Positions 7,544 to 35,982 of a DNA stretch of 64,000 nt are shown here, piece after piece. Numbering within the stretch: the first letter of the stretch is position 1; each line of letters begins with the position of its first letter. The DNA is from Candidatus Eiseniibacteriota bacterium (lineage in GTDB: Bacteria; Eisenbacteria; RBG-16-71-46; CAZAMP01). The notes under the pieces were generated by a model that was not told where the DNA came from, did no database searches, and worked only from the letters and a program-made list of their open reading frames with translations. The DNA lies in the NCBI GenBank assembly GCA_965224245.1, contig OZ245046.1:160001-224000 (forward strand). The letters run 5' to 3'. The translations under genes and the position numbers were made by a program.

Positions 7544-9070
<1,527 letters not shown>

Positions 9071-10111: not shown

Positions 10112-10343
10112 CCGCTGCTCGGCCTTGACTCATGCGTTCACGCCGACGAACATGATCCGGCCTCGGAGCCAGCGCGATGAGAACGGCGGCCCGTGCTCGC
10201 GCGTCGAGCCACGCGGAACGCCGCCTCTATCCGGCACGGCGACGAGCTCGGAAGATGGCAGTGAGCCGATGAGCGCTGCGTGAGCGCCTGGTGGAGCTTC
10301 TGGTAGCCGGCGAGGCTCGTCGACGTTGAGTAGATCACCTCGA

Positions 10344-18694: not shown

Positions 18695-18807
18695 CTGGGA
18701 TCGCGGCGTGCGGCCGGTGGTCTGGACCCCAAAGTGTCCGAGAATTCGGTCCCGTTGGCAAATGCTAGTCTTCCGACCCAACCCACGGTGAGCGTCGATG
18801 AAGCCGC

Positions 18808-19713
18808 TCACGTTTCGCCGTGGGCTCGCCTCGCCAGCACGACGTTCAGCATCGGCGATCTCACGTCGACCGCCGTGGGCCGCCACTTCTCGTACGCCGC
18901 ATCGAGAACGCGCTTGCTCGTCTCGGCGTCCATCGTCGGCAGGATGTTTCGGCGGAAGATCGGGATGTCGTACCAGCCCTTGTCCGACTCCGGTGAGTGC
19001 CGGAACCAGAAGAGCTCCTGACGTACGACCTCCAGCGCACACGACTCCAGGCCCTCGACGAGCTCCACCATGTATCGACGGCGCCGCTCGGCACGTGTCT
19101 CGTCGAGCGTCTCGTCCGGGGTGAAGCCGAACTCGGCACGTGCGACCTCGATCATCACGTCCGGCAGGCTCGGGCTCTGCTTGCGGGACTCGATCAGGTC
19201 GTCCGGGCTCGGGATGGAGGGGTCGTACGTCGTCTCCACCGGCTGTCCGTTCTCGATCGCGAGCGTGGGAAACGTGTTGAACACGATACGGAGGTCGCCG
19301 GCGGCGATCTCGGAGAGCTGCCGCAGCGTCTCCCGTGGCTTCATCTGCCAGAAGGCTGCATTGCTGACCACGCGATGCACCGGCCCCTCCACCACGTCGG
19401 CCAGCTCCTCGGCGGGCGAGCACAGGTACTCGATGCTGGTCGACGGAGCATGCTCGCGCGCGATGGCGAGCTGAGCCTCCGATCCGTCGAGCGCGACGAT
19501 GCGGGCGGCATCGGCATGGGCACGATACAGCGCATCCACGGTGGCACCCGTCCCGCATCCGAGATCCAGTACCGTCATCCCGGGGTGGACGTCGCAGAGC
19601 GCGACGAGGCGATCGCTCATGTCCCGATACATGCGGTGCTCCTCGGTGTACGCGCGATAGAGCCGTGCGTTCTCGGGCGTGTCCCAGTCGACTATCTTGC
19701 GCTCGTCGCTCAC
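18808..19713 (-). CDS. Class I SAM-dependent methyltransferase
   Basis: VLDLGCGTG motif I, ALDGS..QL, VSNAAFW; GGAGG RBS. Confidence 0.85.
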   Translation of the reverse strand: MSDERKIVDWDTPENARLYRAYTEEHRMYRDMSDRLVALCDVHPGMTVLDLGCGTGATVDALYRAHADAARIVALDGSEAQLAIAREHAPSTSIEYLCSPAEELADVVEGPVHRVVSNAAFWQMKPRETLRQLSEIAAGDLRIVFNTFPTLAIENGQPVETTYDPSIPSPDDLIESRKQSPSLPDVMIEVARAEFGFTPDETLDETRAERRRRYMVELVEGLESCALEVVRQELFWFRHSPESDKGWYDIPIFRRNILPTMDAETSKRVLDAAYEKWRPTAVDVRSPMLNVVLARRAHGET

Positions 19714-19769
19714 GTCGCCTCCTTCGACGAAGGCCGCCGACAGGCGGCGGACTCACGCGGCTCCCCTCG

Positions 19770-22670
19770 CTAGGAGCCGGCCCGGAGCTTCTCGAGACGT
19801 CGCTTCGCGCCCTCGACGATGGGAATGCCGGGGTCCGCACTCTCCCAGATGCTCAGGAACTCGTCGTATCGCTCGATCGCCTTGTCGTTCCAGCCCGACT
19901 CCTCATATGCCAGGCCGGCGTAGTAGTGCACGATGACGGCGCTCGTGGGGTCTTCTCCCCAGGACTCGTCGTAACGGTGCAGCGCGGCCTCGTACTCCCG
20001 CACCGCCTCCGACAGCCGGTGCGCGTGCTGATACGCACGTCCGAGATCGACGCGTTGCCAGATGGGTGTGTCGTAGGGGTCTTCCCGAACGATCCACTCG
20101 AAGTGCTCCACGGACTCCTCGAGCTGTCCGCGCGCGCGGGCGAGATGGCCGAGGCAGTAGCGGTACCCTCGTTCGGCGCCCTCGACACCCTCCTCGACGA
20201 GCTGGGCACGGCGCCTCGCAATGATCTCTGCTCGTTCGAGATCGCCGGCGAGCACGTACCAGCGACAGAGCTCCGAGTGAATCGCCGCTCCCGGATCGTC
20301 CGGATCACGGCTGGGCAGATGCTGCCCGTCCGCGATCGCCTCGTCGTACTCCCCGAGGATCTCGTGGATCTGGCCCTTCAGCAGGTGCTTGTCGTAGTGG
20401 TACCAGTCGTCCGTCGTGTTCTCCAGCCGGTCGGCGGCGATGCCCTGGTCGTACTGCTCCAGCGCCGCGGCGAACTTGCCCTGGTACGCCAGGATGTGGG
20501 CCAGATAGCAGCGAGCGTAGCTTCGCGTTCTCGGGCTCTCCGAGCTCAGCAGCCGCCGGTAGGTCGAAGCCGCCGCCGCGTAGTCGCGTTTCGCTCGGTA
20601 CTGGTGGCCCAGCTTCCAGATCGTGAACTCGGAATCGGGATTGATCTCCAGCGCCTTCCGATAGGAGGCGATCGCCTCATCGACCTTTCCTGCCCAGGCG
20701 TACAGGTCTCCGCGCGTGTCATACGGGTTGTACTCGTCGGGGGCCACCTCGATGTACTTGTTGATCGCCCAGATCGATTGCCCGAAGTCGCCGATGGCCT
20801 CGTAGATGTAGGCGAGCGTGTTGTACGGAAGCTTGAAGAGGGGATCGATCTCGATCGCGGCGTGGAGGTGGCGGATCGCTCCCTGTGGGTCGCCGCTGCT
20901 GAGCAGCGTTCCGAGCTGCAGATGGGCTTCCTTGTCGTCGGGATCGAGCGCGATGATCTTCTCGATGGTCTCGACCGAACCGGACACATCATCGTGGAGC
21001 TGCTTGTACTTCGCATCGATCCACAGCCGTTCCTTCCGGGTGACGTTCCGGGCGTGAGCCCACGCCTTCTCGACGAACACCCTTCCCGTTTCCCCAGGCG
21101 CGCTTCGAGCGAGCTGGAAGTAAGCCATGGCGAAGGTGGAGTCGATCTCGACCGCCCGCTGGAAACTCTGCCTCGCTCTCGATCGTTCGAAACGGTTGTA
21201 CAGGTCCAGACCTTCGAGGTAGTAGCGGTAGGCCTCGACGGACTGCGTGGACACCTTGACGTCGGCGGGAGTGGTGGACGTGACCGAGAGGTCCATGTCA
21301 CGCCTGATCTCGTCGGCCAGCCGGTCCGCGATCACGAAGATGTCTTCTTCCTCCGCTCCGCCCACGCGCTGGGATGACGCGACCTGGCCCGTCGCGATGT
21401 CGACGATCTGGGAGGTGGCCACGATCTCGGGCTGGGTCCGGAGCAGGCTCCCCAGCAACATCCACCTGGCGCCGGCCCTTCTCGCGACGTCCGTGGAGGT
21501 GCCGGAATCCAGCTTCTTGAGCCCTTCCTTCCCCTCGAGCTTGAGCAGGTCGTAGAGGCGCTGGCTGGAGATGACCGTCATCGACGACGACTCCGAGAGA
21601 TGGGTGATGAGCAGGTCCGTGATGATCTCGCCCAGCCTCTGCTCGTCCTCGCGGTCGGCCTTGTTGTCGAAGTACATGATCGCCAGCGTGTTCTCGTCGG
21701 TGGTGGGGGCGTTCGTTCGCCCGGCCAGCGGAAGCCGCCTGGCCACGAACAGGAGCGAGACGATGGCCAGCACGGCGACCGGTACGATCCATCGCCGTTG
21801 CCGTCGCACGTGTGACGCTTCGACCGACGGCATCACGACGGTGGCGGCGCCTTCCACGGTCAGTCGACTCTCGCGACGCAGATCGGCCGCGAGGTCGGTG
21901 GCCGACTGGTAGCGCTCGTCAGGATCCTTGGCGAGTGCTTTCCGGACGATCCGTTGCAGCTCGGGGGAGGCGGAGCTGCTGAACCGCGCCAGCGGCTGGG
22001 GCTCCTCGGTGGTGATGGAATGTGCGACCGCCGCGGCGTTCTCGCCACGGAAGGGAAGCCTCCCGGTGACCATCTCGTAGAGGATCGTGCCCAGCGAGAA
22101 GAGATCGGAGCGGTGATCGACGTCGGAGGAGCGCACCTGCTCGGGCGACATGTAGAAGGCGGTACCCAGCGTGACCGAGTCGTCTGTGAGCTTCGTCGCG
22201 CCGGTGACCTTCGCCAGGCCGAAGTCCAGAATCCGGACGTTGTCCGCGGTGTCGATGATGACGTTTGCCGGCTTCACGTCTCGATGCACGATGCCGGCGT
22301 CGTGCGCCCTGGCCAGCCCCTCCGCGATCTGAAGCGCGTACTTGAGCACCTTGTCGATGCGGAGACTCTCGTCGCCAATCGACGCGGAGAGCGGTGCACC
22401 CTCGACGTATGCCATCACGATGAACGGACGTCCCTCGTGCAGTGATACTTCGTGAATCGTGATGACGTTCGGATGATCGAGCGAGGCCGCGGCCTGGGCC
22501 TCGCGCCTGAAGCGGGTGAGTGCATCGGGGTCGGTGGCATCGACGTCGACGAGGAACTTGACGGCAACGCGACGACCGAGCTCGGTGTCCTCCGCCAGGT
22601 AGACTTCGCCCATACCGCCCTGGCCGAGCTTCTCGAGGATCCGGTAGTGGGAGATCGTTCGACCGAGCAT
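19770..22670 (-). CDS. Ser/Thr kinase with TM helix, TolB-N-like domain and TPRs
   Basis: MLGRTISHYRILEKLGQGGMGEV, HRDVKPAN, DFG; TM WIVPVAVLAIVSLLFV; LAIMYFDN; T.SVEAYRYYLEG followed by TPRs. Confidence 0.92.
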   Translation of the reverse strand: MLGRTISHYRILEKLGQGGMGEVYLAEDTELGRRVAVKFLVDVDATDPDALTRFRREAQAAASLDHPNVITIHEVSLHEGRPFIVMAYVEGAPLSASIGDESLRIDKVLKYALQIAEGLARAHDAGIVHRDVKPANVIIDTADNVRILDFGLAKVTGATKLTDDSVTLGTAFYMSPEQVRSSDVDHRSDLFSLGTILYEMVTGRLPFRGENAAAVAHSITTEEPQPLARFSSSASPELQRIVRKALAKDPDERYQSATDLAADLRRESRLTVEGAATVVMPSVEASHVRRQRRWIVPVAVLAIVSLLFVARRLPLAGRTNAPTTDENTLAIMYFDNKADREDEQRLGEIITDLLITHLSESSSMTVISSQRLYDLLKLEGKEGLKKLDSGTSTDVARRAGARWMLLGSLLRTQPEIVATSQIVDIATGQVASSQRVGGAEEEDIFVIADRLADEIRRDMDLSVTSTTPADVKVSTQSVEAYRYYLEGLDLYNRFERSRARQSFQRAVEIDSTFAMAYFQLARSAPGETGRVFVEKAWAHARNVTRKERLWIDAKYKQLHDDVSGSVETIEKIIALDPDDKEAHLQLGTLLSSGDPQGAIRHLHAAIEIDPLFKLPYNTLAYIYEAIGDFGQSIWAINKYIEVAPDEYNPYDTRGDLYAWAGKVDEAIASYRKALEINPDSEFTIWKLGHQYRAKRDYAAAASTYRRLLSSESPRTRSYARCYLAHILAYQGKFAAALEQYDQGIAADRLENTTDDWYHYDKHLLKGQIHEILGEYDEAIADGQHLPSRDPDDPGAAIHSELCRWYVLAGDLERAEIIARRRAQLVEEGVEGAERGYRYCLGHLARARGQLEESVEHFEWIVREDPYDTPIWQRVDLGRAYQHAHRLSEAVREYEAALHRYDESWGEDPTSAVIVHYYAGLAYEESGWNDKAIERYDEFLSIWESADPGIPIVEGAKRRLEKLRAGS

Positions 22671-22837
22671 GGACACTTCCATCTCGCTTGATCGACGGAG
22701 GTTAGGAGATAGTCGGTCAGCGGGTCAACGATGGTGCCGAGGATCGGGAGGCAATCCCGCGATGGAAGGAGGATCCGATCGATCTCGGACACGACGCTGG
22801 TCGCTCCCGGACAGCGCACCTCTTCGCAAGAAGGGGA

Positions 22838-23600: not shown

Positions 23601-26540
23601 TCACTCTCCAGTCGGAGATGCGCCGGAGATCCGCGTCAGTCTTGCAGCCGCGTCGACCGCCTCGGGCAGCGGTACGTCCGGATCGCCCCAGCGCGCGAGG
23701 AACTGGCGATAGTGTGCCTCGGCCATCACGATCTCACCGCGACTCTCCTCGAGGCGTGCCAGCGGATGGAGCACGGCCGTGTCGATGATGCGCCACTCGC
23801 CGTGCTCGAACTCCCGACCGAGCCGCGGATAGGGCGGCTCGATCACGCGGCGGTAGGCCTCGATGGCGGCGGTGGTGTCTCCGAGCGCGAGCGACAGTCG
23901 CGCATTCAGCTCTTCCTCCCTCTGCCGGTCCCGGTAGGCCGGCGAGAACCGGGACGCCGCGACCAGCGCCTCCTGTGCCGACGCGGTCAGATCCCGGTCG
24001 AGCGCGATCTCCGCGGACAGGAAGAGGTGCCAGACCTCGGCCTCCGGGCTGCGTGTCGTCGGAAGTGCGGTGCGAGATTCCTCGGCCACCGCGTCGGCAC
24101 CCGGACGGTCGCCGGAGGCGAGCAGGGCGCGAACCAGCCAGTACCGGGCTCGCCAGTAGTACTCGTTCGAGGCGATGGCCTCGCGAGCGGCGTCTCCGGA
24201 CTCCTCCGGCCGGCCGATCAAGAGAAAGACCTCGGCCCGTATCGAATGAAACATGGCCGGGTCCCAGGTCGGCATCGGGTTCAGCCAGATGACCCTCTCC
24301 TCTCGCGACAGCCCATCGAGGAAGCGTCCCTGGCACAGTGCCGCCAGTCCGGCGATGTGTTCGCTGTATGCCCGTTGATAGCCTTCCAGACGCTCGTTCC
24401 CGGCTCGCGCCACCCTCTCGGCCTCGGCGCCGTCGCCGACCTGCATGAGTGCGACGGCGTATCGGTACCATCCACCCCACTGCCCGGCCCTCATTCTCTC
24501 CGATGCGCGCTGCTCGAGCTCCGTCCAATCGCGTCGCGCGGTCAGGAGCGCCATCTCGAGATCCGTCACGACGGGGGTGGTCGCCCCGTCGGCACGTATC
24601 GACCGGATCATGGCTGTGACCTCGGCGGCGTCGCCCCTGAACAGCGAGTGCTCCGCCCAGTGATGGAGCACGACCTGGTAGCTCGGGTCGATCGAGAGCG
24701 CGCGCTCGAATGCGGCCTGTGCCCGGACGGGATCCCAGTGGCGAGCCGAGTGGGTCAGAACCTCACCGAATGCGTCGTGCGCGGCCGCGATCTGGACCTC
24801 GGCCACGATCAGCGGCTCGAGCAGATCGAAGGCCGAGTCGAACTCGGCATCGTTCCAGTCGACCGTCGCCTGGTAGATCGTGCGCCACTGCTCCGAGAGC
24901 CGATCCGTGTACGGGAGTCCCTGCCGCAGCGCCACGTGGGATCCGGCCTGGTCACCCTGCCAGTTCAGAGCCTGAGCCATCTGGAAGTACGCCATGGCGA
25001 AGCTCTCGTCACGGCGGATGGCGGCGGCGAAGTGCTCCGCGGCTTCCTCGAACTCCTGATGATGCAGCGCGAGCTCTCCGGCCGCGTAGTCACGGTATGC
25101 GTCCGGCGACGCGGTCAAGGTACGGGCGAGATCGAACCCGTCGGCCGCGCCGCCGCCGGTGGTCACCCCGAGCTCCCGGCGCACCTCGTTCGCTACGTCG
25201 CCGGCCAGTGCAAAGAGCTCATCCTCGTTCGCGGCATCGTGCCGGCGTGACCCGATGGTGTTCCCGGTGTGCACGTCGACCAGCTCGGCCGTGAGCACGA
25301 TCCGGGAGTTCACGTCCATCACCTGCCCGACCACCATGACGTCGAGCTGTGCGATGCGGGCCGCCTCCCGCGCCAGCGCCATCTCGAGGCCCGGGGTCCG
25401 CGCGCCCGCCCGCTCGAGAGATGCGGTGATCTTCGCCGTCGACGCGATGTCGAGGCCTCCCGACTCCACCAGGGCCGTCGTCACGAGCGCCATGAGCATG
25501 CGGCCGATGTGACCGGAGTCCTCGGGATCGGCGAGGTTCTCGAACCCGACGACGCCCACCGTGGAGCCCGATCCGAGGACGACGTCGGCGGTGGGGCGTA
25601 GCAGGAACCACAGCGTGGCGGTCACGGCAATGACGACGACGGATGCGATCACGGCGGTCACCGGGATCGGCCGGGGACGCCCGGGAAGGGAGCGACCGGG
25701 CGGGTTCGCCGCGAGGTCGACGAGGGCATCGAGCACCTCGGCGCCGCTCTGATACCGCGTGGCGGGGTCCTTCTGGAGACAGCGGTCCACGATCGCATCG
25801 AACCGCGCGGGCAGCGACGGCACGAACTCGCTCGGTGACGTGGGGGCGTCCCGCAGGATCGCGGACGTGAGATCGGAGGGCGTGGCTCCCTGAAACGGCC
25901 GTCGCCCGGTTGCCAGCTCGTGCAGGAGAATGCCCAGCGAGAACACGTCCGTCCGAAGATCGACCTCCAGGCCTCGGACCTGCTCCGGCGACATGTAGGG
26001 AAGCGTGCCGACGACCGAGCCCACCTCCGTCACCGCCGGCGTCGTGGTTTCCGATCCGATCGCGGGGGGAGCGACCAGCTTGGCGAGCCCGAAGTCGAGC
26101 ACCTTGATCGCGCCGTCGTCGGTTGTCATGACGTTCGCGGGCTTCAGATCCCGGTGCACGATCCCTTTCGCATGCGCCGCGGCGAGGGCACGCGCGATCG
26201 CGGTGCCCGTCTCGAGCAGTCGCGCGAACGGCATCCCGCCGGGAGGGATCGTGCGATCCAGGCTCGTGCCATCCACCAGCTCCATGGTCAGGAAGTGGAC
26301 GGCGCCCGCCTGCTCGACCGAGTGGATCGTCACGATGTGGGGATCGTTCAGCGCGGCGATCGTCTTGGCCTCGCGCTCGAAGCGAGCCAGGCCGGCGGGA
26401 TCGGACGCCAGCGAGGCGGGGAGGACCTTGAGCGCGACCCGCCGCTCGAGCGTCAGGTCGTCGGCGACGTAGACCTCTCCCATCCCGCCGGCCCCGATCC
26501 GGTCGAGGATCCGGTAGTGGCCCAGAGTTTCGCCGATCAA
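23601..26540 (-). CDS. Ser/Thr kinase with TM helix, TolB-N-like domain and TPRs
   Basis: GGAGGG RBS then TTG; LIGETLGHYRILDRIGAGGMGEV, HRDLKPAN, DFG, SPEQ; TM; VVGFENL; T.SPDAY; TPRs; paralog of the 19770 gene. Confidence 0.9.
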   Translation of the reverse strand: MIGETLGHYRILDRIGAGGMGEVYVADDLTLERRVALKVLPASLASDPAGLARFEREAKTIAALNDPHIVTIHSVEQAGAVHFLTMELVDGTSLDRTIPPGGMPFARLLETGTAIARALAAAHAKGIVHRDLKPANVMTTDDGAIKVLDFGLAKLVAPPAIGSETTTPAVTEVGSVVGTLPYMSPEQVRGLEVDLRTDVFSLGILLHELATGRRPFQGATPSDLTSAILRDAPTSPSEFVPSLPARFDAIVDRCLQKDPATRYQSGAEVLDALVDLAANPPGRSLPGRPRPIPVTAVIASVVVIAVTATLWFLLRPTADVVLGSGSTVGVVGFENLADPEDSGHIGRMLMALVTTALVESGGLDIASTAKITASLERAGARTPGLEMALAREAARIAQLDVMVVGQVMDVNSRIVLTAELVDVHTGNTIGSRRHDAANEDELFALAGDVANEVRRELGVTTGGGAADGFDLARTLTASPDAYRDYAAGELALHHQEFEEAAEHFAAAIRRDESFAMAYFQMAQALNWQGDQAGSHVALRQGLPYTDRLSEQWRTIYQATVDWNDAEFDSAFDLLEPLIVAEVQIAAAHDAFGEVLTHSARHWDPVRAQAAFERALSIDPSYQVVLHHWAEHSLFRGDAAEVTAMIRSIRADGATTPVVTDLEMALLTARRDWTELEQRASERMRAGQWGGWYRYAVALMQVGDGAEAERVARAGNERLEGYQRAYSEHIAGLAALCQGRFLDGLSREERVIWLNPMPTWDPAMFHSIRAEVFLLIGRPEESGDAAREAIASNEYYWRARYWLVRALLASGDRPGADAVAEESRTALPTTRSPEAEVWHLFLSAEIALDRDLTASAQEALVAASRFSPAYRDRQREEELNARLSLALGDTTAAIEAYRRVIEPPYPRLGREFEHGEWRIIDTAVLHPLARLEESRGEIVMAEAHYRQFLARWGDPDVPLPEAVDAAARLTRISGASPTGE

Positions 26541-26604
26541 GATCCCTCCATCGGACGGGCTGGCCGAGCGGGAACGCCGGAGCCACGAGGAGTAGTATCC
26601 GAGA

Positions 26605-27021
26605 GTGCGAACGTGTTGCCAACCGGTTGTTTGCGGCAACGCGAGGCGTGTCGCACCCCGCAGGTCGTCGTCCCGCGGTGACCCACGCCGAGGTTTCCGT
26701 TTCCGATGCTCGGCGGCAGCCTGCCCAACGCCCGCGCCGCCGGCGGCTACGCGCTTCGAGCGGATCGTGCCGACCCCTTCCCGGCTGCGCACGCGCATGT
26801 CGTTCTCGGTCGCGAAGGCCGGGCATGTCACGCTGAGCATCTACGATGCACGCGGTCGTCTCGTGCGCGTTCTCGCGGACGCCTCGATGACGGAGGGGAT
26901 GCACCGGCTCGACTGGGACGGCACGAGCACGCACGGCGAGACGATGCCGAACGGGACCTACTGGATCCGATTGCGGACGCTGGACGCGACGGTCAGTCGG
27001 CGCATCTCGATGGTTTGCTGA
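26605..27021 (+). CDS. Stand-alone or truncated FlgD-Ig/T9SS-like domain
   Basis: LSIYDARGRLVRVL..HRLDWDGTSTHGETMPNGTYWIRL; N-terminus not signal-like, start unclear; may be a gene relic. Confidence 0.55.
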   Translation: MRTCCQPVVCGNARRVAPRRSSSRGDPRRGFRFRCSAAACPTPAPPAATRFERIVPTPSRLRTRMSFSVAKAGHVTLSIYDARGRLVRVLADASMTEGMHRLDWDGTSTHGETMPNGTYWIRLRTLDATVSRRISMVC

Positions 27022-27479
27022 GAGAGCGCGTGTGCTCGAGTGAGGGGCGGTAGCGCTCGAAACAGCCACCGAGTCCCGAGACGTCGCGGGACCCGGGGTG
27101 GATCCGGGTCGATATGGCGAATCGCGTGGCCTCGACTGACACGCAACATCGTCACTCTGTCCGGTGGCCTTGACGATCCGACGGGCCGCATGGATCGAGT
27201 CTGCACGAACGACCGCGATCAGCTGCGATGAGGACGCCTCCCGGACCCGTCTCCTGATCAGATGGAAATGCCTATGTGGCCGCGATATCATGAATTCGAG
27301 CCCGAACCCTGTCGTACACACCAGACCATTGGCGCTAGACTGAACATCCAGTAATCGGGGCTGGATCGGGTCATCGTCGGCGTGCGTCTGTTCGAACGGC
27401 GTGCAGGCGCACACGTCCTCACACTGGATTCCGGCCTCTCTACGGCACTCGAGTCCGAGTCGGGGGGCATCGAGCCGAC

Positions 27480-28061
27480 ATGGAATCCACGGCCACGCTT
27501 CTCTCCCTCGTTCGCGAGGGCGACGAGAAGGCCAAGAGCCGCCTCTTCGAGCGGTACCTTCCACTTCTCGTTCGATGGGCGTCGGGCCGGCTGCCGCCGG
27601 CGACCCGATCGCTGGCCGATACGAATGACCTCGTTCAGGTCACCCTCCTGAAAGCGTTGAACAAGGTAGACGGGTTCCAGCCCCGACACGAGGGGGCGTT
27701 TCTGTACTACCTGCGCCGAGCCCTCGTGAACCAGATCCGCGATCTGATCCGGCATGCGAAGCGGCAGCCCGAGATGCGGTCGCTCTCGGAGGACATTCCC
27801 GACCAGGGTGCAACACCGCACGGGGACGCGCTGAGGGGTGAGATCATGGATCGATACGACGCCGCTCTGGAGACGCTCACGCCGGCTCAGCGCGAGGCCG
27901 TCGTGTTGCGCCTGGAGCTGGGGCTCACGCACGTGCAGGTGGCCGAGGCGCTCGAGGACTGCCCGTCCGCGGACGCGGCGCGCATGCTGGTCACGCGCGG
28001 CATTCTCCGCCTGGCCAAGGAGATGGGACCCGACCTGAACCCCGATGGGAGCACCCGTTGA
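27480..28061 (+). CDS. ECF-family RNA polymerase sigma factor
   Basis: Region 2 DTNDLVQ..F..YL..N.IRD..R; region 4 LETLTPAQREAVVLR.ELGLT..QVAE.L. Confidence 0.9.
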   Translation: MESTATLLSLVREGDEKAKSRLFERYLPLLVRWASGRLPPATRSLADTNDLVQVTLLKALNKVDGFQPRHEGAFLYYLRRALVNQIRDLIRHAKRQPEMRSLSEDIPDQGATPHGDALRGEIMDRYDAALETLTPAQREAVVLRLELGLTHVQVAEALEDCPSADAARMLVTRGILRLAKEMGPDLNPDGSTR

Positions 28062-29749
28062 CGCCCGACGACGAGGTTCTTCGCAGGATAGCCGAGGAGA
28101 TCGCGGACCTCCGCTCCATCGACTGGGAGCAGGAGAGCGTCGTGGACGGCCCGCTGGCGGTGAGGCTAGGGAACCTGCGTCTTCTGGACGCGATCCGGTC
28201 TCTCCACCAGGACAGCGCGGACCCCGACGGTGCGACCACGACCGAGGATGCGAAGCCCGGTCCGTCGGCCGAACCGGAGATCGGCTCGTACTGGGGTCCG
28301 CTGCGTATCGTCGAGCGTGTCGGCCACGGATCCTTCGGCGACGTCTTCCGGGCGTGGGACCCGACGCTGCAGACACACGTGGCGCTCAAGCTGCTCCACC
28401 GGCGGCGAGGGAAACCGGGGCGGTTGCTCCGAGAAGCACGCCAGATGGCGAAGGTGCGTCACGAGAACGTCGTCACGGTGCACGGCGCCGCGGAGCACGA
28501 CGGGCGGATCGGGATCTGGACCGAGTTCATCGAGGGGAAGACGCTCGAGCAGGAGCTCTCCGAGCGCGGCGCCTACGGAGCCGACGAGGCGGCGCTGGTG
28601 GGCCGGGATCTCGTCCGCGCCATCGCCGCCGTCCACGCGGCCGGGCTCGTGCACCGCGACATCAAGACGACGAACATCATGCGCGCGGTGGGGGGGCGGC
28701 TGGTGCTCATGGACTTCGGCACCGTGATCGATCGGGAGCAGCTCGAGTCGCTCGGACCCTCCGACGCGTTCGTGGGAACGGCGCTCTACATGGCGCCCGA
28801 GCTCTTCCTGGAAGGACACGGCGGCAAGGCGGCCGACGTGTACTCGCTGGGTGTGGTTCTCTATCGCCTCGTGACCGGGACCTTCCCGGTCGACGCGAAG
28901 AACCCGATCGAGCTCGGGGCCAAGCATCGCCGAGGTGAGCGTGTCCCGCTGCGCGATGCCCGACCGGACCTGCCGGCCGCCTTCGTGAGCATCGTGGATC
29001 GCGCTCTCGCGACGACGCCCGAGGACCGGCCCGGAAGCATGGGCGAGATGGAACGCGAGCTGGTCTCGTTCCTGAGCGCGCTCCCCGGGGATCCCCGGTC
29101 CGTCCGACGGAGCCTCCCGCGCTGGATCCTCCCGTTGGCGGCGACCGCGCTCGTGGTGGTCGCGATCCTACTCTGGTCGCTCGTGTCCGGTGGTGCAGGG
29201 GAGCTCCGTGTCGATGCGGAGCTCTTCCGGGATCGGGTGGGGGTCGAGGAGCGGCTGCGAGCGGGCGGTCGCGTGCAGCCCGGAGACCACCTCTTCCTGG
29301 AGCTGCTCGCGTCGACCGACTTCCACGCCTACGTGTTCAACGAAGACGAGCAGGGAAACACGCATCTCCTGTTCCCGCTCACCGGGCTCGAGCCCTCCAA
29401 CCCGCTCGAGGGTGGACGCACCCACCGGCTACCCGGATCGCGCGACGGTGTTCCGTTGACCTGGGACGTCGACGCCTACGGCGGGCGCGAGACCCTGTAC
29501 ATCGTGGCGTCACGGGCTCCCCTCGAGGATCTCGAGGCAGAGATGCGACGCTTTCCCGAGGCGGGATCCTCGCCGGGGATCCCGATCGGGTCCGGTTTCC
29601 TGCGACGCAGCATCGGAGGGCTCGGGTCGGCCGCGGCCGAGCGGGCGGCGGATGAGCCGACGCTCGGAGACTTCATCGGCCGGCTATCGACCGAGCGAAC
29701 CAGTGAGCTCTGGACGTGGTCGATCCAGCTGGAGAATCAGCCACCATGA
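28058..29749 (+). CDS. Membrane Ser/Thr kinase with extracytoplasmic DUF4384-like domain
   Basis: VGHGSFGDV, VALK, HRDIKTTN, DFG, APE; TM WILPLAATALVVVAILLW; PGDHLFLE..YVFNEDEQG..LLFP..LP..GRET.YIVASR.PL; overlaps the sigma stop codon. Confidence 0.88.
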   Translation: MTPDDEVLRRIAEEIADLRSIDWEQESVVDGPLAVRLGNLRLLDAIRSLHQDSADPDGATTTEDAKPGPSAEPEIGSYWGPLRIVERVGHGSFGDVFRAWDPTLQTHVALKLLHRRRGKPGRLLREARQMAKVRHENVVTVHGAAEHDGRIGIWTEFIEGKTLEQELSERGAYGADEAALVGRDLVRAIAAVHAAGLVHRDIKTTNIMRAVGGRLVLMDFGTVIDREQLESLGPSDAFVGTALYMAPELFLEGHGGKAADVYSLGVVLYRLVTGTFPVDAKNPIELGAKHRRGERVPLRDARPDLPAAFVSIVDRALATTPEDRPGSMGEMERELVSFLSALPGDPRSVRRSLPRWILPLAATALVVVAILLWSLVSGGAGELRVDAELFRDRVGVEERLRAGGRVQPGDHLFLELLASTDFHAYVFNEDEQGNTHLLFPLTGLEPSNPLEGGRTHRLPGSRDGVPLTWDVDAYGGRETLYIVASRAPLEDLEAEMRRFPEAGSSPGIPIGSGFLRRSIGGLGSAAAERAADEPTLGDFIGRLSTERTSELWTWSIQLENQPP

Positions 29750-32700
29750 TCGGGATGTGGAGACTCGCGGCCGGTGCCGTGCTCCTCGCGACCTCCGCCA
29801 TGGCCGCGGAGACGGATCTGACGGCGCCCGAGCTCGACACACGGCTGGATCGGATCTGGACGATGATCCGGGACGAGCGAGCGTTCGCGGTCGCCGATTC
29901 CGTAGCGCTCGAGCTCCTGGCCGACGTGGAGACGTCGTTCGGGCACGAGTCCGTTTCCGTGGCGCGTGTGCTGGACCCGCTCGTGATCGCCCGACTCGGG
30001 CAGCGCGCGGTCGACGCGGAGTGCCTGAGCCTGGCCGAGCGGGCGGTCCGCATCAAGGAGCGGGACCCGGTTCCGGAGGAGCCCGAGCTGGCGACGAGTC
30101 TACTCGGTCTGGGCCGGGTGCTGCAGGTGCTGGAGCGATCCGGGGAGGCTCGTACGCCTCTGGAACGCGCTCTCGAGATCCGGCGGAGCCGGTTCGGCGC
30201 TGCATCCGCCGAGGTCGCGGACGTGCTCACACAGCTCGCGCAGGTCTACATCGATCTCGATCTCGAGCCGGAGGCCGCCAGCATGCTCCAGGAGACGCTC
30301 GCGATCTACGACGCGTCCCCGGACACCGACGTTCGCACGGTCAGTCCACTGCTATACAACCTCGCATGGCTCCGCCGCGCGCTCGGTCAGTTTCGAGCCG
30401 CCGAAGAGCTATACCAGAGGTTGCTCGACATCACGCCCGAGTCGGTGATGCTCGTTCGCGCGTCTGTCTTCAACGGCCTGGGAGCGCTCCATCACGAGGA
30501 GGGCCGGTACGCCGAGTCCCTGGCCGAGCTGGAGCACGCGCTCGCTGTCGCACGGGAGGCCGGGGCCCACCCGGTCCTGATGACACACATTCTCAACAAT
30601 CTCGGGTTCGTCTTGTCGAACCTCGGAGACCATGCAGAGGCCGTCACGCGCTACGACGAGGCGCTGTCGCTGCAGCGGGAGCTTCACGGCGACGAGCACA
30701 CCATGACCGCCACCATGCTCGCAAATCTCGCCGAGACGCACCTGGCCCTGGGACACGTGGACGAGGCCCGTGAGCTGCACGAGCAAGCGCTCGGCATCCG
30801 GGAGCGCATTCTCGGCCCGGACCACGCCGAGACGGCGACGAGCCTCGGCGGACTCGCCGAGGTCTATCTCGAGATGGACCGGCCCGATGACGCTCGGCGG
30901 CTGCTGGAACGCGCGCTCGCGATCCGCACACGTCATCTCGGTCCCGATCACTTCGACACCGGCAAGGCCGTGGCCCGATTGGCCCGGTCACTCGCGGCGT
31001 CGGACAGCCTGGACGCGGCCGAGCGATCGTATCGCCGGGCGCTGGACGTGATCGCGGCCACGCTGGATCGGGGCAACCCGGAATGGTCCGAGGTCAGTCT
31101 CGGGCTCGCCGAGGTCGAGCTGTCTCGTGGCGCGTTCACGGAGGCCTGGACGCTGGCGCGCGAGGCCGAGACGCGATCCCGCGAGCACGCGAGGCTCACG
31201 GCGGCCGCGCTGTCGGAGCGCCAGGCGCTGCAGTACGCCTCGATCCGCAAGGAGGCGCTGGATCTCATCTTGACCCTCGTGGTGTCCGGGCATCGGAGCG
31301 ATGCACTGGAGGCCTGGGACCACGTGATTCGTTCCCGGGCCCTGGTCCTGAACGAGGTCGTGCTGCGTCGCGAGCGGCTGCACGCCGAAGCCGACACGTC
31401 GGTGACGCGGCTCATGGCCCGCTACGCGGATGCGAGCACCGCGCTCGCCACGCTGATGGTCCGGGGACCGGATGCCTCCGACCCGGGCTCGTTCCGCGAC
31501 CGGCTCCGGGAGGCGCGTGCCGACCGCGAACAGGCCGAGCGGGCCCTTGCGCTCCGCAGCTCGGCATTTCGCGATCGTCTGGCCACCGCCCGGCGCGGCG
31601 CCAATCAGGTGCTCGCGGCCCGGCCCGAGGGCTCGGCGGTTCTCGCGTACGTCCGCTACGAGCGATCCGGTCCGGGTCCCGGCGCGGCCTACGCGGCCTT
31701 CGTGACCGGGAAGGGCGCGGCCGCTCCCGTCGTGGTGGATCTCGGGAGCGCCGAGTCGATCGACGCCCTCGTCGCGGACTGGAGAGCGGAGGTGGTTCTC
31801 CCGTCGCCGGCCGATCTGGATCGGGCGACCCGACGGTATCGAGACGTGGGGAGGCGGCTGCGCGAGGCGATCTGGGATCCGGTCGTCCCCGCGCTCGAGG
31901 ATGCACGGACCGTCTTCGTGGTACCCGATGGTGAGCTGCATCGCGTCAGCGCCTACACGCTGCCGGACGAAGGCGGCTACCTGGTCGAGTCGGGAATCCG
32001 GGTGCACTACCTGGCCGCCGAGCGTGACCTCGTCGAGCCGCCGACGGAGGCCGAGGGTCGCGGGATGCTCGCGCTCGGGGGCCCCGACTTCGATGCGACC
32101 GACGACACGGTGACGCCGGTCACCGAGGCGGGTCCGGCGAGCCGTAACGGGGCGGTCCGATTCAGTCCGCTTCCGGGAACCCGTGCGGAGGTGAAGGCGG
32201 TAGCCGGCTTCTGGACGGGCGGTGATGCCGTCGTCCTGACCGGCCCCGACGCGTCGGAGGCCGCGTTCAAAGCGCGCGCACCGGGATGCCGCGTGGTCCA
32301 CGTGGCCACGCACGGCTTCTTTCGTGAGGCGACGCTCCGCTCGGGACGGGCCAGGACCCGCTCGATCGGTGGGCTGTCGGCCCGGCCGCCCGTGGCCCCA
32401 CACGAGCGGATGCCCGTGTTGTCCGGACTCGCGCTTGCGGGCGCGAACCACGGGATGGACCGGAGCTCGTCCGGTGAGGACGGGATCCTGACCGCCGAGG
32501 AAGTCGCCGCTCTCGATTTCTCGGGGACGGAGTGGGTCGTGCTCTCGGCATGTGACACCGGACTCGGTGACATCGAGTCCGGGGAGGGCGTGGTCGGGCT
32601 CCGGCGGGCGTTCGAGGTGTCGGGCGTCGGAACCGTCATCATGAGTCTGTGGGACGTGGATGACGAGGCCACCCGGCGGTGGATGCAGCAGCTGTACCTC

Positions 32701-32841
32701 GGTCGGTTCGAGCGAAAGGAGACCACGGTAGACTCGATGTGGGAGGCCTCGCGAGAGGTCCTCGAGTGGTGTCGCGAGAGCCTCGGCACCGATCATCCGT
32801 TCTTCTGGGGAGCGTTCGTCGCCGCCGGTGACTGGCGCTGA
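29746..32841 (+). CDS. Exported TPR-CHAT (caspase-like, clan CD) protease
   Basis: Signal peptide ending SAMA-AE; kinesin-light-chain-type TPRs (LGPDH.ETA.SL..LA); HVATHG (His 32311), VVLSACDTG (Cys 32551), SLWDVDD, HPFFWGAFV..GDWR; ATGA overlap with the kinase. Confidence 0.92.
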   Translation: MIGMWRLAAGAVLLATSAMAAETDLTAPELDTRLDRIWTMIRDERAFAVADSVALELLADVETSFGHESVSVARVLDPLVIARLGQRAVDAECLSLAERAVRIKERDPVPEEPELATSLLGLGRVLQVLERSGEARTPLERALEIRRSRFGAASAEVADVLTQLAQVYIDLDLEPEAASMLQETLAIYDASPDTDVRTVSPLLYNLAWLRRALGQFRAAEELYQRLLDITPESVMLVRASVFNGLGALHHEEGRYAESLAELEHALAVAREAGAHPVLMTHILNNLGFVLSNLGDHAEAVTRYDEALSLQRELHGDEHTMTATMLANLAETHLALGHVDEARELHEQALGIRERILGPDHAETATSLGGLAEVYLEMDRPDDARRLLERALAIRTRHLGPDHFDTGKAVARLARSLAASDSLDAAERSYRRALDVIAATLDRGNPEWSEVSLGLAEVELSRGAFTEAWTLAREAETRSREHARLTAAALSERQALQYASIRKEALDLILTLVVSGHRSDALEAWDHVIRSRALVLNEVVLRRERLHAEADTSVTRLMARYADASTALATLMVRGPDASDPGSFRDRLREARADREQAERALALRSSAFRDRLATARRGANQVLAARPEGSAVLAYVRYERSGPGPGAAYAAFVTGKGAAAPVVVDLGSAESIDALVADWRAEVVLPSPADLDRATRRYRDVGRRLREAIWDPVVPALEDARTVFVVPDGELHRVSAYTLPDEGGYLVESGIRVHYLAAERDLVEPPTEAEGRGMLALGGPDFDATDDTVTPVTEAGPASRNGAVRFSPLPGTRAEVKAVAGFWTGGDAVVLTGPDASEAAFKARAPGCRVVHVATHGFFREATLRSGRARTRSIGGLSARPPVAPHERMPVLSGLALAGANHGMDRSSSGEDGILTAEEVAALDFSGTEWVVLSACDTGLGDIESGEGVVGLRRAFEVSGVGTVIMSLWDVDDEATRRWMQQLYLGRFERKETTVDSMWEASREVLEWCRESLGTDHPFFWGAFVAAGDWR

Positions 32842-32866
32842 ATGCACCCCGGCAAGGAGCCGTGTC

Positions 32867-33607
32867 ATGAAGATCGTATGGTACATCGTCGTGATCGTCG
32901 TCGTGGTGATCGGGATCGTGCTCCTGAGACCCCTGTGGTGTGGTGACGACGACCCGGTCACGCATCTCGTCATCGAGCACACGAACGCGGGCCCGTGGAT
33001 GGACATGAACAACACGTTCAGTGACGTGTTCGACGAGGACGACGCCAAGACGTTCCGCCCCGGTGTGCTCTTCCAGCTCGGCGACTACGCCGGCATGGCG
33101 TTCTACAACTACCTCGAGGTCCGGATCTTCGAGGGCTCCACGCCCACCGTCTTCAAAGACGGGGTCTGGGTCAACATCATCTCCGAGTTCGACGAGCACC
33201 CCGGCGAGCCGATGCTGCCGGACGAGGCCTTCATCCTGTACCCCAACTCGAATCCGGCCAGCGGCTGCGTTGCCGACGATATCAACTGTCTGCGCAACCG
33301 TTCGCTGCACGGCGGGATGAACGAGAACGACGAGATCAAGAGTCTGATGACCTACTGGCAGGGTCCGAACGGGTACCGGATCTCCGCGCAGGAGGAGAAG
33401 CAGCCCAACTCGGGTAACGCCTTCCGGTTCACGTTCGAGGATCCGTTCCGGGTCGACGTCTACGAGCCGGCCGACTGGAACACCGGACCCACGATGGGAT
33501 CTCCGATCCGCTTCAAGGTGGGCGACGTCGACTCCATCGTGGTCGCCGTCAGCGCAGGACCGCCGGAGAAGGGACAGCTCGTGCAGCCACCGTGGCCGGT
33601 GCCGTGA
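32867..33607 (+). CDS. Hypothetical protein with N-terminal membrane anchor
   Basis: AAGGAG RBS; MKIVWYIVVIVVVVIGIVLL; strong C/G third-position bias. Confidence 0.75.
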   Translation: MKIVWYIVVIVVVVIGIVLLRPLWCGDDDPVTHLVIEHTNAGPWMDMNNTFSDVFDEDDAKTFRPGVLFQLGDYAGMAFYNYLEVRIFEGSTPTVFKDGVWVNIISEFDEHPGEPMLPDEAFILYPNSNPASGCVADDINCLRNRSLHGGMNENDEIKSLMTYWQGPNGYRISAQEEKQPNSGNAFRFTFEDPFRVDVYEPADWNTGPTMGSPIRFKVGDVDSIVVAVSAGPPEKGQLVQPPWPVP

Positions 33608-33633
33608 TCACGCGACGATGAGGGGATGACAAC

Positions 33634-35982
33634 ATGCCGACACGAGACTCCGACTCTCGCGATGCGAGGACGACACAGGCTCGACAGCTTCTCGTGAGGC
33701 TCGACGCCGACGTGCCGTCCGACGAGCTCGGGGCGGACGGTGCCGATCTCGCCATCTTCAGCGAGCTTCTCGCGCGGTATCCCGATCTGACCATCCGGCA
33801 GAGCTTTCCGAAGTTCGTGCACCGGCTCCGCGTCCGCCACCAGGGCGAGGTGCCGGTGCCGAAGGGTCAGCCGCAGCGGAGGCTCGATCTCTTCTTCCGG
33901 GTGACGGTGCCCGATCCGAACTCGGACCTGCGCCGACTGCTCAAGGAGATCCGTGAGACGGACGGAGTGTCGGACGCGCGCCTCGTCATCCCCGCGTCGT
34001 CGATTCCGCCTGCGACCGACTGTGGCGTGAGCGGCCTCCAGGGGTATCACGCACGGAGCAGCGATGACGGCGTCGACACGTGCTACGCCTGGAACGTCAC
34101 GTCGGTTCCGCCGGGCAAGCCCGACGGTGGAGGCGCCGGCGAGGGCGTCGTCGTCTGCGTCGTCGACCGGGACTTCGGAGCGGACCACGTCAACGGTGCG
34201 ACGGTTACCACCGAGCTGGGCACTCCACCGGGCGACAACGACGCCTACAAGCAGCACGGCTCGAAGGTGCTCGGAATCCTCGGATCGCCGGGCAGCAAGG
34301 GCCGAAAGCTCCGTGGCATCTGCCCGGGGGCGACCTTCTGCTTCTCGTACGTGACCGACGAGACCTACGGGATACCGCTGTCGACGCGCTTCAACGAGGC
34401 GATCGACGACGCGATGGTGCACCTCGAGCACGCGATCGAGCTGGAGCAGGGCGCGGTGCTCGTCCTGCAAGCTCAGCTGGACGCGGGCAGCGAGGGGATT
34501 CCGGTGTCGGCGGGACCGGTCACGCTGCCGATCGAGGCCAACGAGGACGTGTATGCCGCACTGGGAACGGCCGCCTCCGAGGGGATCACCGTCGTCGAGG
34601 CGGCGGCCAACGGCGACGCGGAGCTCGTGAAGATCTTCGACGAGACGACGGTGTACTGGGACCCCGAGCCTGGGGACGGGACGTCGTCGGGTGCCATCAT
34701 GGTCGGCGGTGGGGACTCCGCCAGTCACGACTGGCTCTCCGACAGCAACTGGGGCTCTCGCGTGGATTGTCAGGGCTGGGGACACAACGTGTTTGCCCCC
34801 AGCAGTCCCGACGAGGAGCCCGGCACGATGTCCTTCGGCACGAACGAGGCCTACGACCCCGACTTTGGTGGGACCTCGGCCGCGACCGCGATGGTGGGTG
34901 GGATCGTGGCGGCGCTCCAGGGCGCGTACCACGCGGTCGAAGGCGAGTTCCTGGAGCCCGCGACGGTTCGCGAGATGCTCGGGAACGCCGATCTGGGGAA
35001 CGCGGATCCGCTCGGTCGGATCGGCCCCTTTCCCGATCTCTACCGGCTTCTCTGCTCGCGGAACATCTGCCCCGATCTCTTCATCCGCGACGATGATGCG
35101 GATACGGGTGTCCGGCCGCTCGATCTGTTGCTGGGGTTCGCCGCACCGATCTTCTCCTTCACCAGTCCCGACGTCTTCGTTCAGCCGGAGAAGGCGATCC
35201 CCACGACGTTCGACGCCGCGGCCGCAGTCGCTGCACTCGGCTACCCGCGGGTCGACGGCGGCGCGAATCACGTCCACGCCCGCGTGAGGAACCGAGGGCG
35301 AGGCACCGATGGCGGCCGGGTGTCGATCTTCTGGTCGAGGCCCAGCTCGTTTCTGCATCCTCATTGGTGGGAGCCCGCCGGATTGCCCGGGTCGTTGCCT
35401 TCCACTCGACCCGCGGGCGAGTCGGTCGCGCACATACCCTGGGATGCGCCCTTCGAGGGTGCCCCGGAGCACTGTGCGCTCATCGCCGTCGTTTCACCTA
35501 GTCGCGGCAGCGTCGTCGAGTTCGACGCGTCGATGTCCATGATGGAGTTCCGTGACCTCATCCGCACCCGGAACGACATCGCGGTTCGAAACGTGCACGT
35601 GGGGTTCGTCGAGGCGGGCGGAGTCGTCTGGTTTCGGTATCACCTCAGAGGCCGCCCCGAAGCGGCCAGTACCTTCCGGCTCAAACTCGGGACCGATGTT
35701 CCAGCGGGAGGCACGCTGGAGCTGAGTCCGGATACGAGCGTGACGTTCAAGGGAGCCGGGGGCGCGTTCCCGGTGCCGTCGGGCGCCGTCACGGCGCTGG
35801 CCCTGGGAAACATCGTCGCGGAGGTCGATCTCGGCAAGGGCACCGAGATCATCTTCGACATGGGGGTGAAGGTGCCCGCGAGCACGTCTCCGGGCACCTA
35901 CACCCTGACGATCGATCAGAACTTCGGCATCCTGCACCTCGGACGCTGCACGTACGTCATCGTCGTCCCGCCGCCGACCTGA
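33634..35982 (+). CDS. S8 (subtilisin-like) serine protease with C-terminal beta domains
   Basis: VCVVD (Asp), QHGSKVLGIL (His), AAANG, FGGTSAA (Ser); C-terminal DLFIRD..SPDVFV..VHARVRNRG; no obvious signal peptide. Confidence 0.85.
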   Translation: MPTRDSDSRDARTTQARQLLVRLDADVPSDELGADGADLAIFSELLARYPDLTIRQSFPKFVHRLRVRHQGEVPVPKGQPQRRLDLFFRVTVPDPNSDLRRLLKEIRETDGVSDARLVIPASSIPPATDCGVSGLQGYHARSSDDGVDTCYAWNVTSVPPGKPDGGGAGEGVVVCVVDRDFGADHVNGATVTTELGTPPGDNDAYKQHGSKVLGILGSPGSKGRKLRGICPGATFCFSYVTDETYGIPLSTRFNEAIDDAMVHLEHAIELEQGAVLVLQAQLDAGSEGIPVSAGPVTLPIEANEDVYAALGTAASEGITVVEAAANGDAELVKIFDETTVYWDPEPGDGTSSGAIMVGGGDSASHDWLSDSNWGSRVDCQGWGHNVFAPSSPDEEPGTMSFGTNEAYDPDFGGTSAATAMVGGIVAALQGAYHAVEGEFLEPATVREMLGNADLGNADPLGRIGPFPDLYRLLCSRNICPDLFIRDDDADTGVRPLDLLLGFAAPIFSFTSPDVFVQPEKAIPTTFDAAAAVAALGYPRVDGGANHVHARVRNRGRGTDGGRVSIFWSRPSSFLHPHWWEPAGLPGSLPSTRPAGESVAHIPWDAPFEGAPEHCALIAVVSPSRGSVVEFDASMSMMEFRDLIRTRNDIAVRNVHVGFVEAGGVVWFRYHLRGRPEAASTFRLKLGTDVPAGGTLELSPDTSVTFKGAGGAFPVPSGAVTALALGNIVAEVDLGKGTEIIFDMGVKVPASTSPGTYTLTIDQNFGILHLGRCTYVIVVPPPT

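Follow-up and report, generated by a model that had tools for sequence, protein, structure and literature searches.

The window analysed here is a stretch of 64,000 nucleotides (C1:160001-224000 of a 6.9-Mb genome), and feature positions are given in window numbering. Relatives of the source genome, as found by similarity of the sigma factor described below, carry the label Candidatus Eisenbacteria. The G+C content of the window is high (0.65-0.71) and even throughout. Five co-oriented genes fill 27480-35982 on the plus strand. The first three encode a sigma factor of the extracytoplasmic function (ECF) type, a Hanks-type kinase with DUF4384 as its ectodomain and a TPR-CHAT protein that is exported. 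These three are a conserved core, and we argue that they may form a signalling unit that works across the envelope. The five genes are as follows.

27480-28061, plus strand: ECF sigma factor, 193 aa (Pfam Sigma70_r2 and Sigma70_r4_2).
28058-29749, plus strand: Hanks-type Ser/Thr kinase, 563 aa, TTG start (Pfam Pkinase and DUF4384).
29746-32841, plus strand: exported TPR-CHAT protease, 1031 aa (Pfam TPR_12 and CHAT).
32867-33607, plus strand: membrane-anchored protein, 246 aa, of an unnamed family (no Pfam family).
33634-35982, plus strand: S8 subtilase, 782 aa, with an intact triad (Pfam Peptidase_S8).

The sigma stop and the kinase start overlap by 4 bp (TTGA), and so do the kinase and CHAT genes (ATGA). 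The gap between the CHAT gene and the gene for the anchored protein is 25 nt, and the next one, before the S8 gene, is 26 nt. No anti-sigma gene lies between sigma and kinase, as there is no open reading frame (ORF) there. An initial annotation of this DNA had described five co-oriented genes, with 4-bp overlaps among the first three, spacing of about 25 bp after them and no anti-sigma, and the coordinates agree with it on each point. It had also taken all five genes as one unit and called for a survey of synteny. That survey keeps the first three genes together in related loci and leaves the anchored protein and the S8 protease as lineage-specific.

The core was examined in relatives of the sigma factor. 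When a sigma alignment was used for scanning, species genomes gave 245 relatives and metagenome contigs at least 578. The best 80 of the 245 relatives belong to Candidatus Eisenbacteria, Acidobacteriota, Gammaproteobacteria (Lysobacterales, Rudaea), Gemmatimonadetes and others; 6 of these 80 loci had been sampled already around DUF4384 matches. A kinase directly follows the sigma gene in 66/80. The ectodomain of the window kinase, DUF4384, is present in 30 of these 66 sigma-adjacent kinases, and 25 of the 30 loci have a CHAT gene. A CHAT gene is found in 0/36 loci where the kinase has another ectodomain and in 0/14 loci without an adjacent kinase. In 4 of the 5 exceptions the contig runs on for just 1.0-3.0 kb past the kinase. 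The CHAT gene is not fixed in its place. It is downstream and co-directional in 11 of the 25 loci, upstream and divergent in 12, and upstream and co-directional in 2. The linkage of sigma, kinase and CHAT spans Candidatus Eisenbacteria, Acidobacteriota and Gammaproteobacteria. The metagenome contigs are mostly short, so that only 22 of 80 such loci extend to a kinase domain, with the ectodomain seen in 7. Four of those 7 loci have a CHAT gene (convergent in one of them), as against 0/73 of the others.

Gene order was also followed in 30 related genomes of the class, where 16 regions were taken around lower-scoring DUF4384 matches. Sigma, kinase and CHAT are co-directional in L001, L003, L004, L008, L009 and L011. 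They are present with a gap in L013, the CHAT gene is divergent in L005, and L002 and L007 are cut by contig ends. All five genes are found in L003, and four in L008 before the contig ends. Other families of the class, and other phyla too, show the same three-gene order, and the arrangement is no mere product of chance.

The source genome has 9 copies of the sigma factor, the one in the window and 8 paralogues at 40-49% identity. Each directly precedes a kinase paralogue, one of which is a kinase-like fragment of 269 aa, and a TPR-CHAT gene lies downstream in 3 of the 9 sigma-kinase copies. The alignments of these kinases separate by neighbourhood. The paralogous kinases align from query residues 1-10 in 7/8 cases, whereas kinases that do not adjoin a sigma gene align from residue 39 or beyond. 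In this genome the N-terminal extension, the first 80 residues or so, is common to the sigma-adjacent kinases alone. It parallels the 83-residue extension reported for PknS in PMC13147305. The extension probably couples the kinase to its sigma factor, and it may hold the sigma factor.

The sigma factor has two sites that bear on how the kinase could act.

27618-27629, plus strand: region 2.2 motif D47-T48-N49-D50 (read from the sequence).
27807-27827, plus strand: linker Thr, T112, within GATPHGD (from the alignment).

The sigma factor matches Sigma70_r2 (3.9e-13, residues 22-95), Sigma70_r4_2 (1.5e-06, residues 125-158) and Sigma70_ECF, and it scores 79.1 bits against TIGR02937 (sigma70-ECF), above the cut-off of 42.9. 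It has the sigma2 and sigma4 domains only, as an ECF (group 4) sigma factor should. Its best NCBIfam subfamily, TIGR02984, gives 90.3 bits and falls below the cut-off of 183.75. Like the ECF43 sigma factors, it has a Hanks kinase next to it and no anti-sigma gene. The motif is another matter. In the account of PMC8999054 and PMC13147305, all ECF43 members are without the acidic region 2.2 motif (EcfP has STTA, and the consensus is QTTA). The same sources state that EcfP has STTA instead of DAED and that its second Thr is phosphorylated. The group of the window sigma has [D/E]-T-x-D in 81/81 sequences, most commonly DTDD (33/81), with a Thr at motif position 2 that is invariant in 19/19 and 81/81 sigma sequences. 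The phosphosite mapped in EcfP and EcfK is motif position 3, so the invariant Thr of this group is one position away from it. The window sigma behaves like a kinase-coupled ECF, but its residues, DTND, show neither the loss of the acidic motif nor the Thr at the third position that mark ECF43. The initial annotation had read DTND in the place of DAED. The residues are there, but they do not amount to an ECF43-like loss of acids, as the group keeps its acids and has Thr at position 2. According to PMC8999054 and PMC13147305, other kinase-linked ECF groups keep the acidic motif and have Ser/Thr in or near it, and PMC7826278 gives these groups as ECF59-62, 217, 267 and 283. It is equally possible that the window sigma belongs with one of them as with ECF43. 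The linker between sigma2 and sigma4 has a Ser (SPLE) that is kept in most group members and is Thr in the window sigma. It recalls the second EcfK site, T106, which is in the same place.

The other parts of the argument are in the kinase and the TPR-CHAT protein.

Kinase residues 1-81: N-terminal extension.
Kinase residues 84-328: kinase domain.
Kinase residues 356-376 (29123-29185, plus strand): transmembrane helix.
Kinase residues 406-488: DUF4384, with a C-terminal helix and strand after it.
29603-29626, plus strand: kinase ectodomain motif RRSIGGLG, residues 516-523, a candidate site for CHAT recognition or cleavage (alignment and model).
29746-29805, plus strand: signal peptide of the CHAT protein, residues 1-20.
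CHAT protein, residues 150-480 approximately: TPR region.
CHAT protein, residues 700-1029: CHAT domain.
32299-32316, plus strand: contains CHAT H856.
32356-32382, plus strand: CHAT loop motif TRSIGGLSA, residues 871-879, a candidate autoprocessing or pseudosubstrate site (alignment).
32542-32562, plus strand: contains CHAT C936.

The kinase domain is a strong Pkinase match (9.3e-43), and the catalytic residues expected of a Hanks kinase, the Lys (K111), the HRD Asp (D201), the Asn (N206) and the DFG Asp (D219), are invariant in 20/20 aligned kinases, as is F220. A single hydrophobic helix, read from the sequence, lies between the kinase domain and DUF4384 (PF14326; 3.4e-11, 43.5 bits against a Pfam cut-off of 27). 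This is the arrangement that the initial annotation had given, a transmembrane helix with DUF4384 outside. An AlphaFold2 model of the ectodomain has a pLDDT (per-residue model confidence) of 83.2 and a pTM (whole-model confidence) of 0.80. It consists of a confident beta-sandwich, a segment with pLDDT <50 (residues 504-528), and a helix and strand (pLDDT 83-88) that pack back onto the DUF4384 sandwich. No fold in the PDB matches the ectodomain model at E <= 0.001 (the best is 1.4e-2, with TM <=0.40), which does not imply that the fold is new. In a preprint atlas of Ser/Thr kinases, DUF4384 is given at the C-terminus of one kinase family, and there is no mention of CHAT. One can imagine that DUF4384 is generally tied to CHAT, but this was rejected. 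The best-scoring DUF4384 gene of each related genome encodes a secreted DUF4384 and Cys-rich protein and has no CHAT gene near it, and the same gene is found in genomes that have no CHAT.

The third protein matches TPR_12 (5.4e-59) and CHAT (9.4e-60) and has the make-up of a clan CD TPR-CHAT protease. Its H852, H856 (in HVATHG) and R872 are invariant in 19/19 aligned orthologues, and C936 (in LSACDTG) is kept in at least 90% of them. Its N-terminus, MIGMWRLAAGAVLLATSAMA/AE, ends in AMA/AE and, read from the sequence, resembles a Sec signal peptide. The orthologues likewise start with hydrophobic, signal-like N-termini (alignment columns 139-165). The intact His/Cys dyad and the signal peptide of the initial annotation are both in place, and the CHAT protein is predicted to share a compartment with the kinase ectodomain. 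A search of solved structures with the CHAT profile gave only TPR proteins among the matches listed. A complex prediction for CHAT residues 215-1031 with kinase ectodomain residues 386-563 scored 0.00 in two runs without controls, which speaks neither for nor against binding.

The source genome has 16 CHAT matches and 6 DUF4384 matches, and some of them are found apart from the three-gene order. C1:5274400-5276175 encodes a fourth sigma-coupled DUF4384 kinase, with the motif HRGVGGLTPS and no CHAT neighbour. C1:5817029-5820448 encodes a TPR-CHAT protein without a kinase neighbour, and its loop reads RRAVSGLTPS. These two may pair in trans. At L097 (C1:3940000-3956000, minus strand; 12365-13063, 11398-12303 and 7145-11326 of that region) there is an ECF-like sigma factor of 233 aa, a 302-aa protein and a 1394-aa FG-GAP/FlgD_ig protein, and then a TPR-CHAT gene at C1:3943650-3947045. 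The 302-aa protein has an anti-sigma-like N-terminus, a transmembrane helix and a DUF4384 ectodomain, so it is a putative anti-sigma and not a kinase. No RGxGGL motif was seen in it.

If CHAT acts on the kinase ectodomain or is bound by it, a motif that co-varies between the two proteins is expected. Such a motif can be found. In the kinase it is L-R-[G/S]-[I/V]-G-G-[L/V/M/F], C-terminal to DUF4384 and near-invariant in 20 kinases, with R517 invariant in 20/20 and G520 and G521 kept in at least 90%. In CHAT it is [G/T]-[T/S]-R-[G/S/A]-[I/V]-G-[G/A]-[L/V/I/M], with R872 in 19/19. The CHAT copy sits 15 residues past the catalytic His in the window and 12-20 residues past it among the 19 aligned CHATs. 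The kinase copy sits inside the sole ectodomain segment with low model confidence, and a conserved motif in a disordered loop has the look of a candidate recognition or cleavage site. The motif is also absent where the CHAT loop is short: the short-loop CHAT paralogues of the source genome are without it and the long-loop paralogues have it, including two long-loop genes with no kinase neighbour.

The two copies resemble each other within a locus. In the window both read RSIGGL. Elsewhere in the source genome, the kinase and CHAT of pair B have RGAGAI and RGAGEI, and those of pair C have RGIGGL and RGIGGV. In one clade, at three loci, the kinase has ..GGV and CHAT has ..G[Q/A]V, and at two loci in the Gammaproteobacteria the motif is degenerate in both proteins. 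CHAT has Ser after the Arg in 5/5 cases where the kinase has Ser and in 0/18 where the kinase has Gly (15 Gly, 3 Ala). On a tree of 28 kinase domains the switch between Gly and Ser requires 3 changes per protein, and they fall on the same lineages. Over the five positions after the Arg, the mean identity is 3.59 in 22 true pairs against 2.75 (standard deviation 0.16) in shuffled pairs, and 0/20000 shuffles reach 3.59 in this permutation test, which ignores relatedness.

The last two genes, for the anchored protein and the S8 protease, are less regular and are accessories specific to the lineage. The S8 match to Peptidase_S8 (9.8e-11) covers residues 169-452, and D178, H208, N326 and S415, the triad and the oxyanion Asn, are invariant in 4/4 sequences. 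None of the 4 has a signal peptide or a hydrophobic N-terminus. Its nearest Atlas clusters are S8 peptidases, and no solved structure matches its sequence at E <= 0.01. The window, L003 and L020 are the only places in which this S8 was seen beside the module. A paralogue, 63% identical, stands alone elsewhere in the source genome, and the paralogous cluster B has a different, secreted S8 with a FlgD_ig tail, beyond a gene on the opposite strand. The anchored protein has an N-terminal hydrophobic helix followed by a Cys, and its orthologues carry a lipobox (FSGC, LAGC, LGSC). Its family has 108 representatives at E <= 1e-3, with a Pfam family in 0/53 of the relatives, and it is found in 5/201 genomes of the phylum. 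An AlphaFold2 model (pLDDT 89.4) has no recognisable relative in the PDB (the best Foldseek match is 3.4e-2 and the best VIA-align Z is 3.1), which again does not imply a new fold, and the Atlas yielded nothing usable for it.

Other lineages have other accessories. In an Acidobacteriota clade the TPR-CHAT gene comes after a Peptidase_C11 (clostripain-family) gene and a small ORF in 12/12 loci (L045, L046, L065, L067, L072, L076, L078, L080, L082, L087, L092 and L094). The C11 genes have no evident signal peptide and are usually divergent from the sigma-kinase pair. In the other Eisenbacteria-type loci either unrelated secreted proteins or nothing at all comes after CHAT. The module repeatedly, though not always, comes with a second protease, and this one is predicted to be cytoplasmic.

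One further feature lies before the operon.

27263-27291, plus strand: weak sigma-70-like promoter match, TGGAAA-17-TATCAT, 9/12 (consensus match only).

The 440-nt gap that precedes the sigma gene contains no other match, and shuffles give 0.4 expected for the 1 found. A shared two-box motif of the ECF type was looked for in 88 regions upstream of sigma genes, and no pair of boxes is found in more than 10 sequences, against 7-11 in shuffles. We claim no promoter for the module. A consensus scan found no terminator inside the operon.

Ser/Thr kinases are unusually frequent in the region before the sigma gene. Three large minus-strand ORFs (15071-19840, 19770-22682 and 23601-26840) lie just upstream, and all have kinase-domain matches. 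The long kinase ORF on the minus strand is overlapped at its 5' end by a plus-strand ORF at 26605-27021, so the start of that kinase may lie further in; the C-terminal end of the plus-strand ORF resembles, by eye, a FlgD_ig-type sorting domain. Further away, a 245-aa ORF is directly followed by an 882-aa ORF on the minus strand at 56037-59419. The N-terminus of the latter resembles those of sigma-linked kinases, and the two may be another sigma-kinase pair, different in type. Fragments that look by eye like insertion-sequence transposases lie at 62051-62371 (plus strand) and 63381-63950 (minus strand), 26 kb from the module.

We argue that the three conserved genes encode a trans-envelope signalling unit in which CHAT acts on the kinase loop and the kinase on the sigma factor, and we would put the probability of this at about 0.5. 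In this scenario the kinase encoded directly after the sigma gene controls that ECF sigma. The periplasmic part of the kinase would be a DUF4384 beta-sandwich with an exposed motif loop and a helix and strand packed back. At rest the loop of CHAT itself would occupy the CHAT active site or be cut by it. A signal sensed through the TPR region would then activate CHAT, and active CHAT would bind the kinase loop and most likely cut it after the invariant Arg. Binding or cutting would alter the output of the kinase toward the sigma factor. The motif variants specific to each pair would insulate the paralogous systems of one genome from each other, and the S8 protease and the anchored protein could be outputs or a second protease layer. 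The co-occurrence and the co-varying motif support a direct link between CHAT and the kinase. CHAT binding, kinase cleavage, the direction of signalling and phosphorylation are steps that we infer. The initial annotation had proposed a cascade of this kind, with CHAT acting on the kinase ectodomain. The conserved unit, the shared predicted compartment and the co-varying motif support it in part, and its five-gene operon and its ECF43-type reading of DTND are not supported.

Several points count against this scenario. The kinase-domain tree has an unresolved backbone and allows a single origin of the state with DUF4384 and CHAT, so the contrast between 25/30 and 0/36 may reflect few events. Because the tree allows one origin, the co-occurrence is strong as retention through rearrangement and not as many independent events. 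The motif suffers in the same way. With phylogeny taken into account, the co-variation is not established: the well-supported branches give only 2 independent pairs, and the best tree gives 3 (sign test p 0.5). There are also kinases with the motif but no CHAT beside them. L029 has the ectodomain and the motif, and no CHAT gene in the 8.2 kb past the kinase; the kinase at C1:5274400-5276175 is the same in this respect. It must be noted too that the motif lies past DUF4384, so that cutting at this point would release just the final 45 residues or so and not the ectodomain. Finally, the sigma factor keeps its acidic region 2.2 residues, which means that phosphorylation dependence of the EcfP type is not required.

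One can imagine a scenario where the direction is reversed and the kinase ectodomain regulates or tethers CHAT. Its motif would compete with the inhibitory loop of CHAT or dock CHAT at the membrane. CHAT would have its true substrates among other envelope proteins, and the part of the sigma-kinase pair would be limited to setting how the operon is expressed. A motif in the CHAT loop beside the catalytic His does fit a pseudosubstrate. The long-loop TPR-CHAT genes of the source genome that have no kinase neighbour, and the lineage-specific secreted proteins that come after CHAT in several loci, fit this scenario as well. However, it leaves the tie of CHAT to one type of ectodomain (25/30 against 0/36) unexplained, and no candidate substrate is conserved across loci. 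We consider it unlikely. Another scenario is that CHAT, the anchored protein and S8 are just the regulon of the sigma factor, envelope proteases that the kinase-sigma pair turns on, with no physical link to the kinase and with a motif that serves a third factor or is structural. According to PMC7826278, ECF sigmas commonly share operons with their targets, and the accessory genes do vary between lineages. This does not account for a CHAT gene that stays linked even when it is divergent or convergent and outside the sigma operon, and the pair-specific motif variants in three paralogous pairs are hard to reconcile with a shared third factor, so we judge mere co-regulation quite improbable. The scenario in which the path from CHAT through kinase to sigma switches on the cytoplasmic S8 (C11 in the Acidobacteriota) as a stress, cell-death or phage-defence response like that of the Haliangium cluster (CHAT, sigma, kinase and caspase, as described in 10.1101/2023.06.23.546230) draws on the second protease without a signal peptide in two lineages (S8 in the window, L003 and L020; C11 in 12/12 Acidobacteriota loci), but a second protease is missing from most Eisenbacteria-type loci, the S8 paralogue is on its own and the PADLOC matches are generic, which makes it very improbable, while it is compatible with a trans-envelope unit and not opposed to it.

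The trans-envelope unit can be compared with four systems that come closest to it. The ECF43 pairs, EcfP-PknT of Vibrio parahaemolyticus and EcfK-PknS of Xanthomonas citri, also consist of an ECF without an anti-sigma gene followed by a transmembrane Hanks kinase, and their kinases are extended at the N-terminus by about 80 residues and carry a sensor domain in the periplasm (PMC13147305). That ectodomain is TPR, whereas in the window it is DUF4384. The window unit also includes a dedicated exported TPR-CHAT protein. No such partner appears in the ECF43 accounts of PMC13147305 and PMC7826278, where the main text has CHAT 0 times. PknS is described as autophosphorylating without a stimulus when it lacks its periplasmic domain (PMC13147305). 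The second system is DdvS-DdvA of Myxococcus xanthus, where an ECF sigma is likewise under a periplasmic TPR-CHAT across the inner membrane and caspase-like proteolysis is proposed as the first step, according to PMC11506125. DdvA is one polypeptide with a zinc anti-sigma domain, a transmembrane helix and a TPR-CHAT with an incomplete active site. The window CHAT does not combine these parts; it is separate, exported and has an intact dyad, and the membrane partner is a kinase in place of an anti-sigma.

The third is Craspase of type III-E CRISPR (Cas7-11, the TPR-CHAT Csx29, Csx30, Csx31 and RpoE), where a TPR-CHAT exerts control over a sigma factor by cutting a partner. Csx29 has Csx30 proteins as its substrates, and some of these have DUF4384 at their C-terminal end (as noted in 10.1101/2022.08.17.504292). 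Craspase is cytoplasmic, RNA-guided and has no kinase, whereas the window CHAT has a signal peptide and its DUF4384 is predicted to be periplasmic. That signal peptide argues against a cytoplasmic complex of the Craspase type. Craspases cut after Met or Leu and the candidate site in the window follows an Arg; separase, a CHAT protease, cuts after Arg (both cutting preferences as given in PMC11506125). The fourth is the SAVED-CHAT/PCaspase/PCc-sigma/PCk cluster of Haliangium ochraceum, which also brings together CHAT, sigma, a Ser/Thr kinase and a second protease, and where the caspase-type protease is hypothesised to modify the kinase (10.1101/2023.06.23.546230, in its treatment of that cluster). 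This cluster works in the cytoplasm, has cyclic oligoadenylate as its trigger and is tied to CRISPR/CBASS, with a SAVED-CHAT and not a TPR-CHAT and no DUF4384 ectodomain. None of the four pairs an exported TPR-CHAT with a receptor kinase. A known defence system was tried as a class for the locus and rejected, as PADLOC gives generic kinase, TPR and subtilase matches only. No published description of the sigma-kinase-CHAT module was found in the main-text literature on ECF/CHAT, DUF4384 and TPR-CHAT; supplements, such as the ECF43 kinase-ectodomain survey cited in PMC13147305, may list such neighbours.

A wider reading can be offered tentatively, and we would not bet on it. Exported caspase-fold proteases may in general take hold of transmembrane signalling proteins, and so gate them, through DUF4384 followed by an exposed Arg-Gly loop. 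Such a handle would serve for receptor kinases, for the anti-sigma-like proteins of cluster F in the source genome and, in the cytoplasm, for Csx30. The copy in CHAT would be autoinhibitory or autoprocessing, and the variants would be a specificity code that insulates one pair from another. If true, this would be a bacterial counterpart of protease-activated receptors that feeds a kinase and a sigma factor.

The extracellular sensing of receptor kinases and kinase-coupled ECFs is largely open. For PknS, the account in PMC13147305 has the periplasmic domain as needed and the stimulus as still to be found. The module offers a concrete candidate for one large group, and this sigma group is widespread in soil phyla. 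It brings a caspase-like protease of its own in the periplasm, a site on the kinase that is a defined candidate for the target, and natural specificity variants that can be swapped. If the trans-envelope unit is real, it would give CHAT a substrate outside CRISPR systems and DUF4384 a role.

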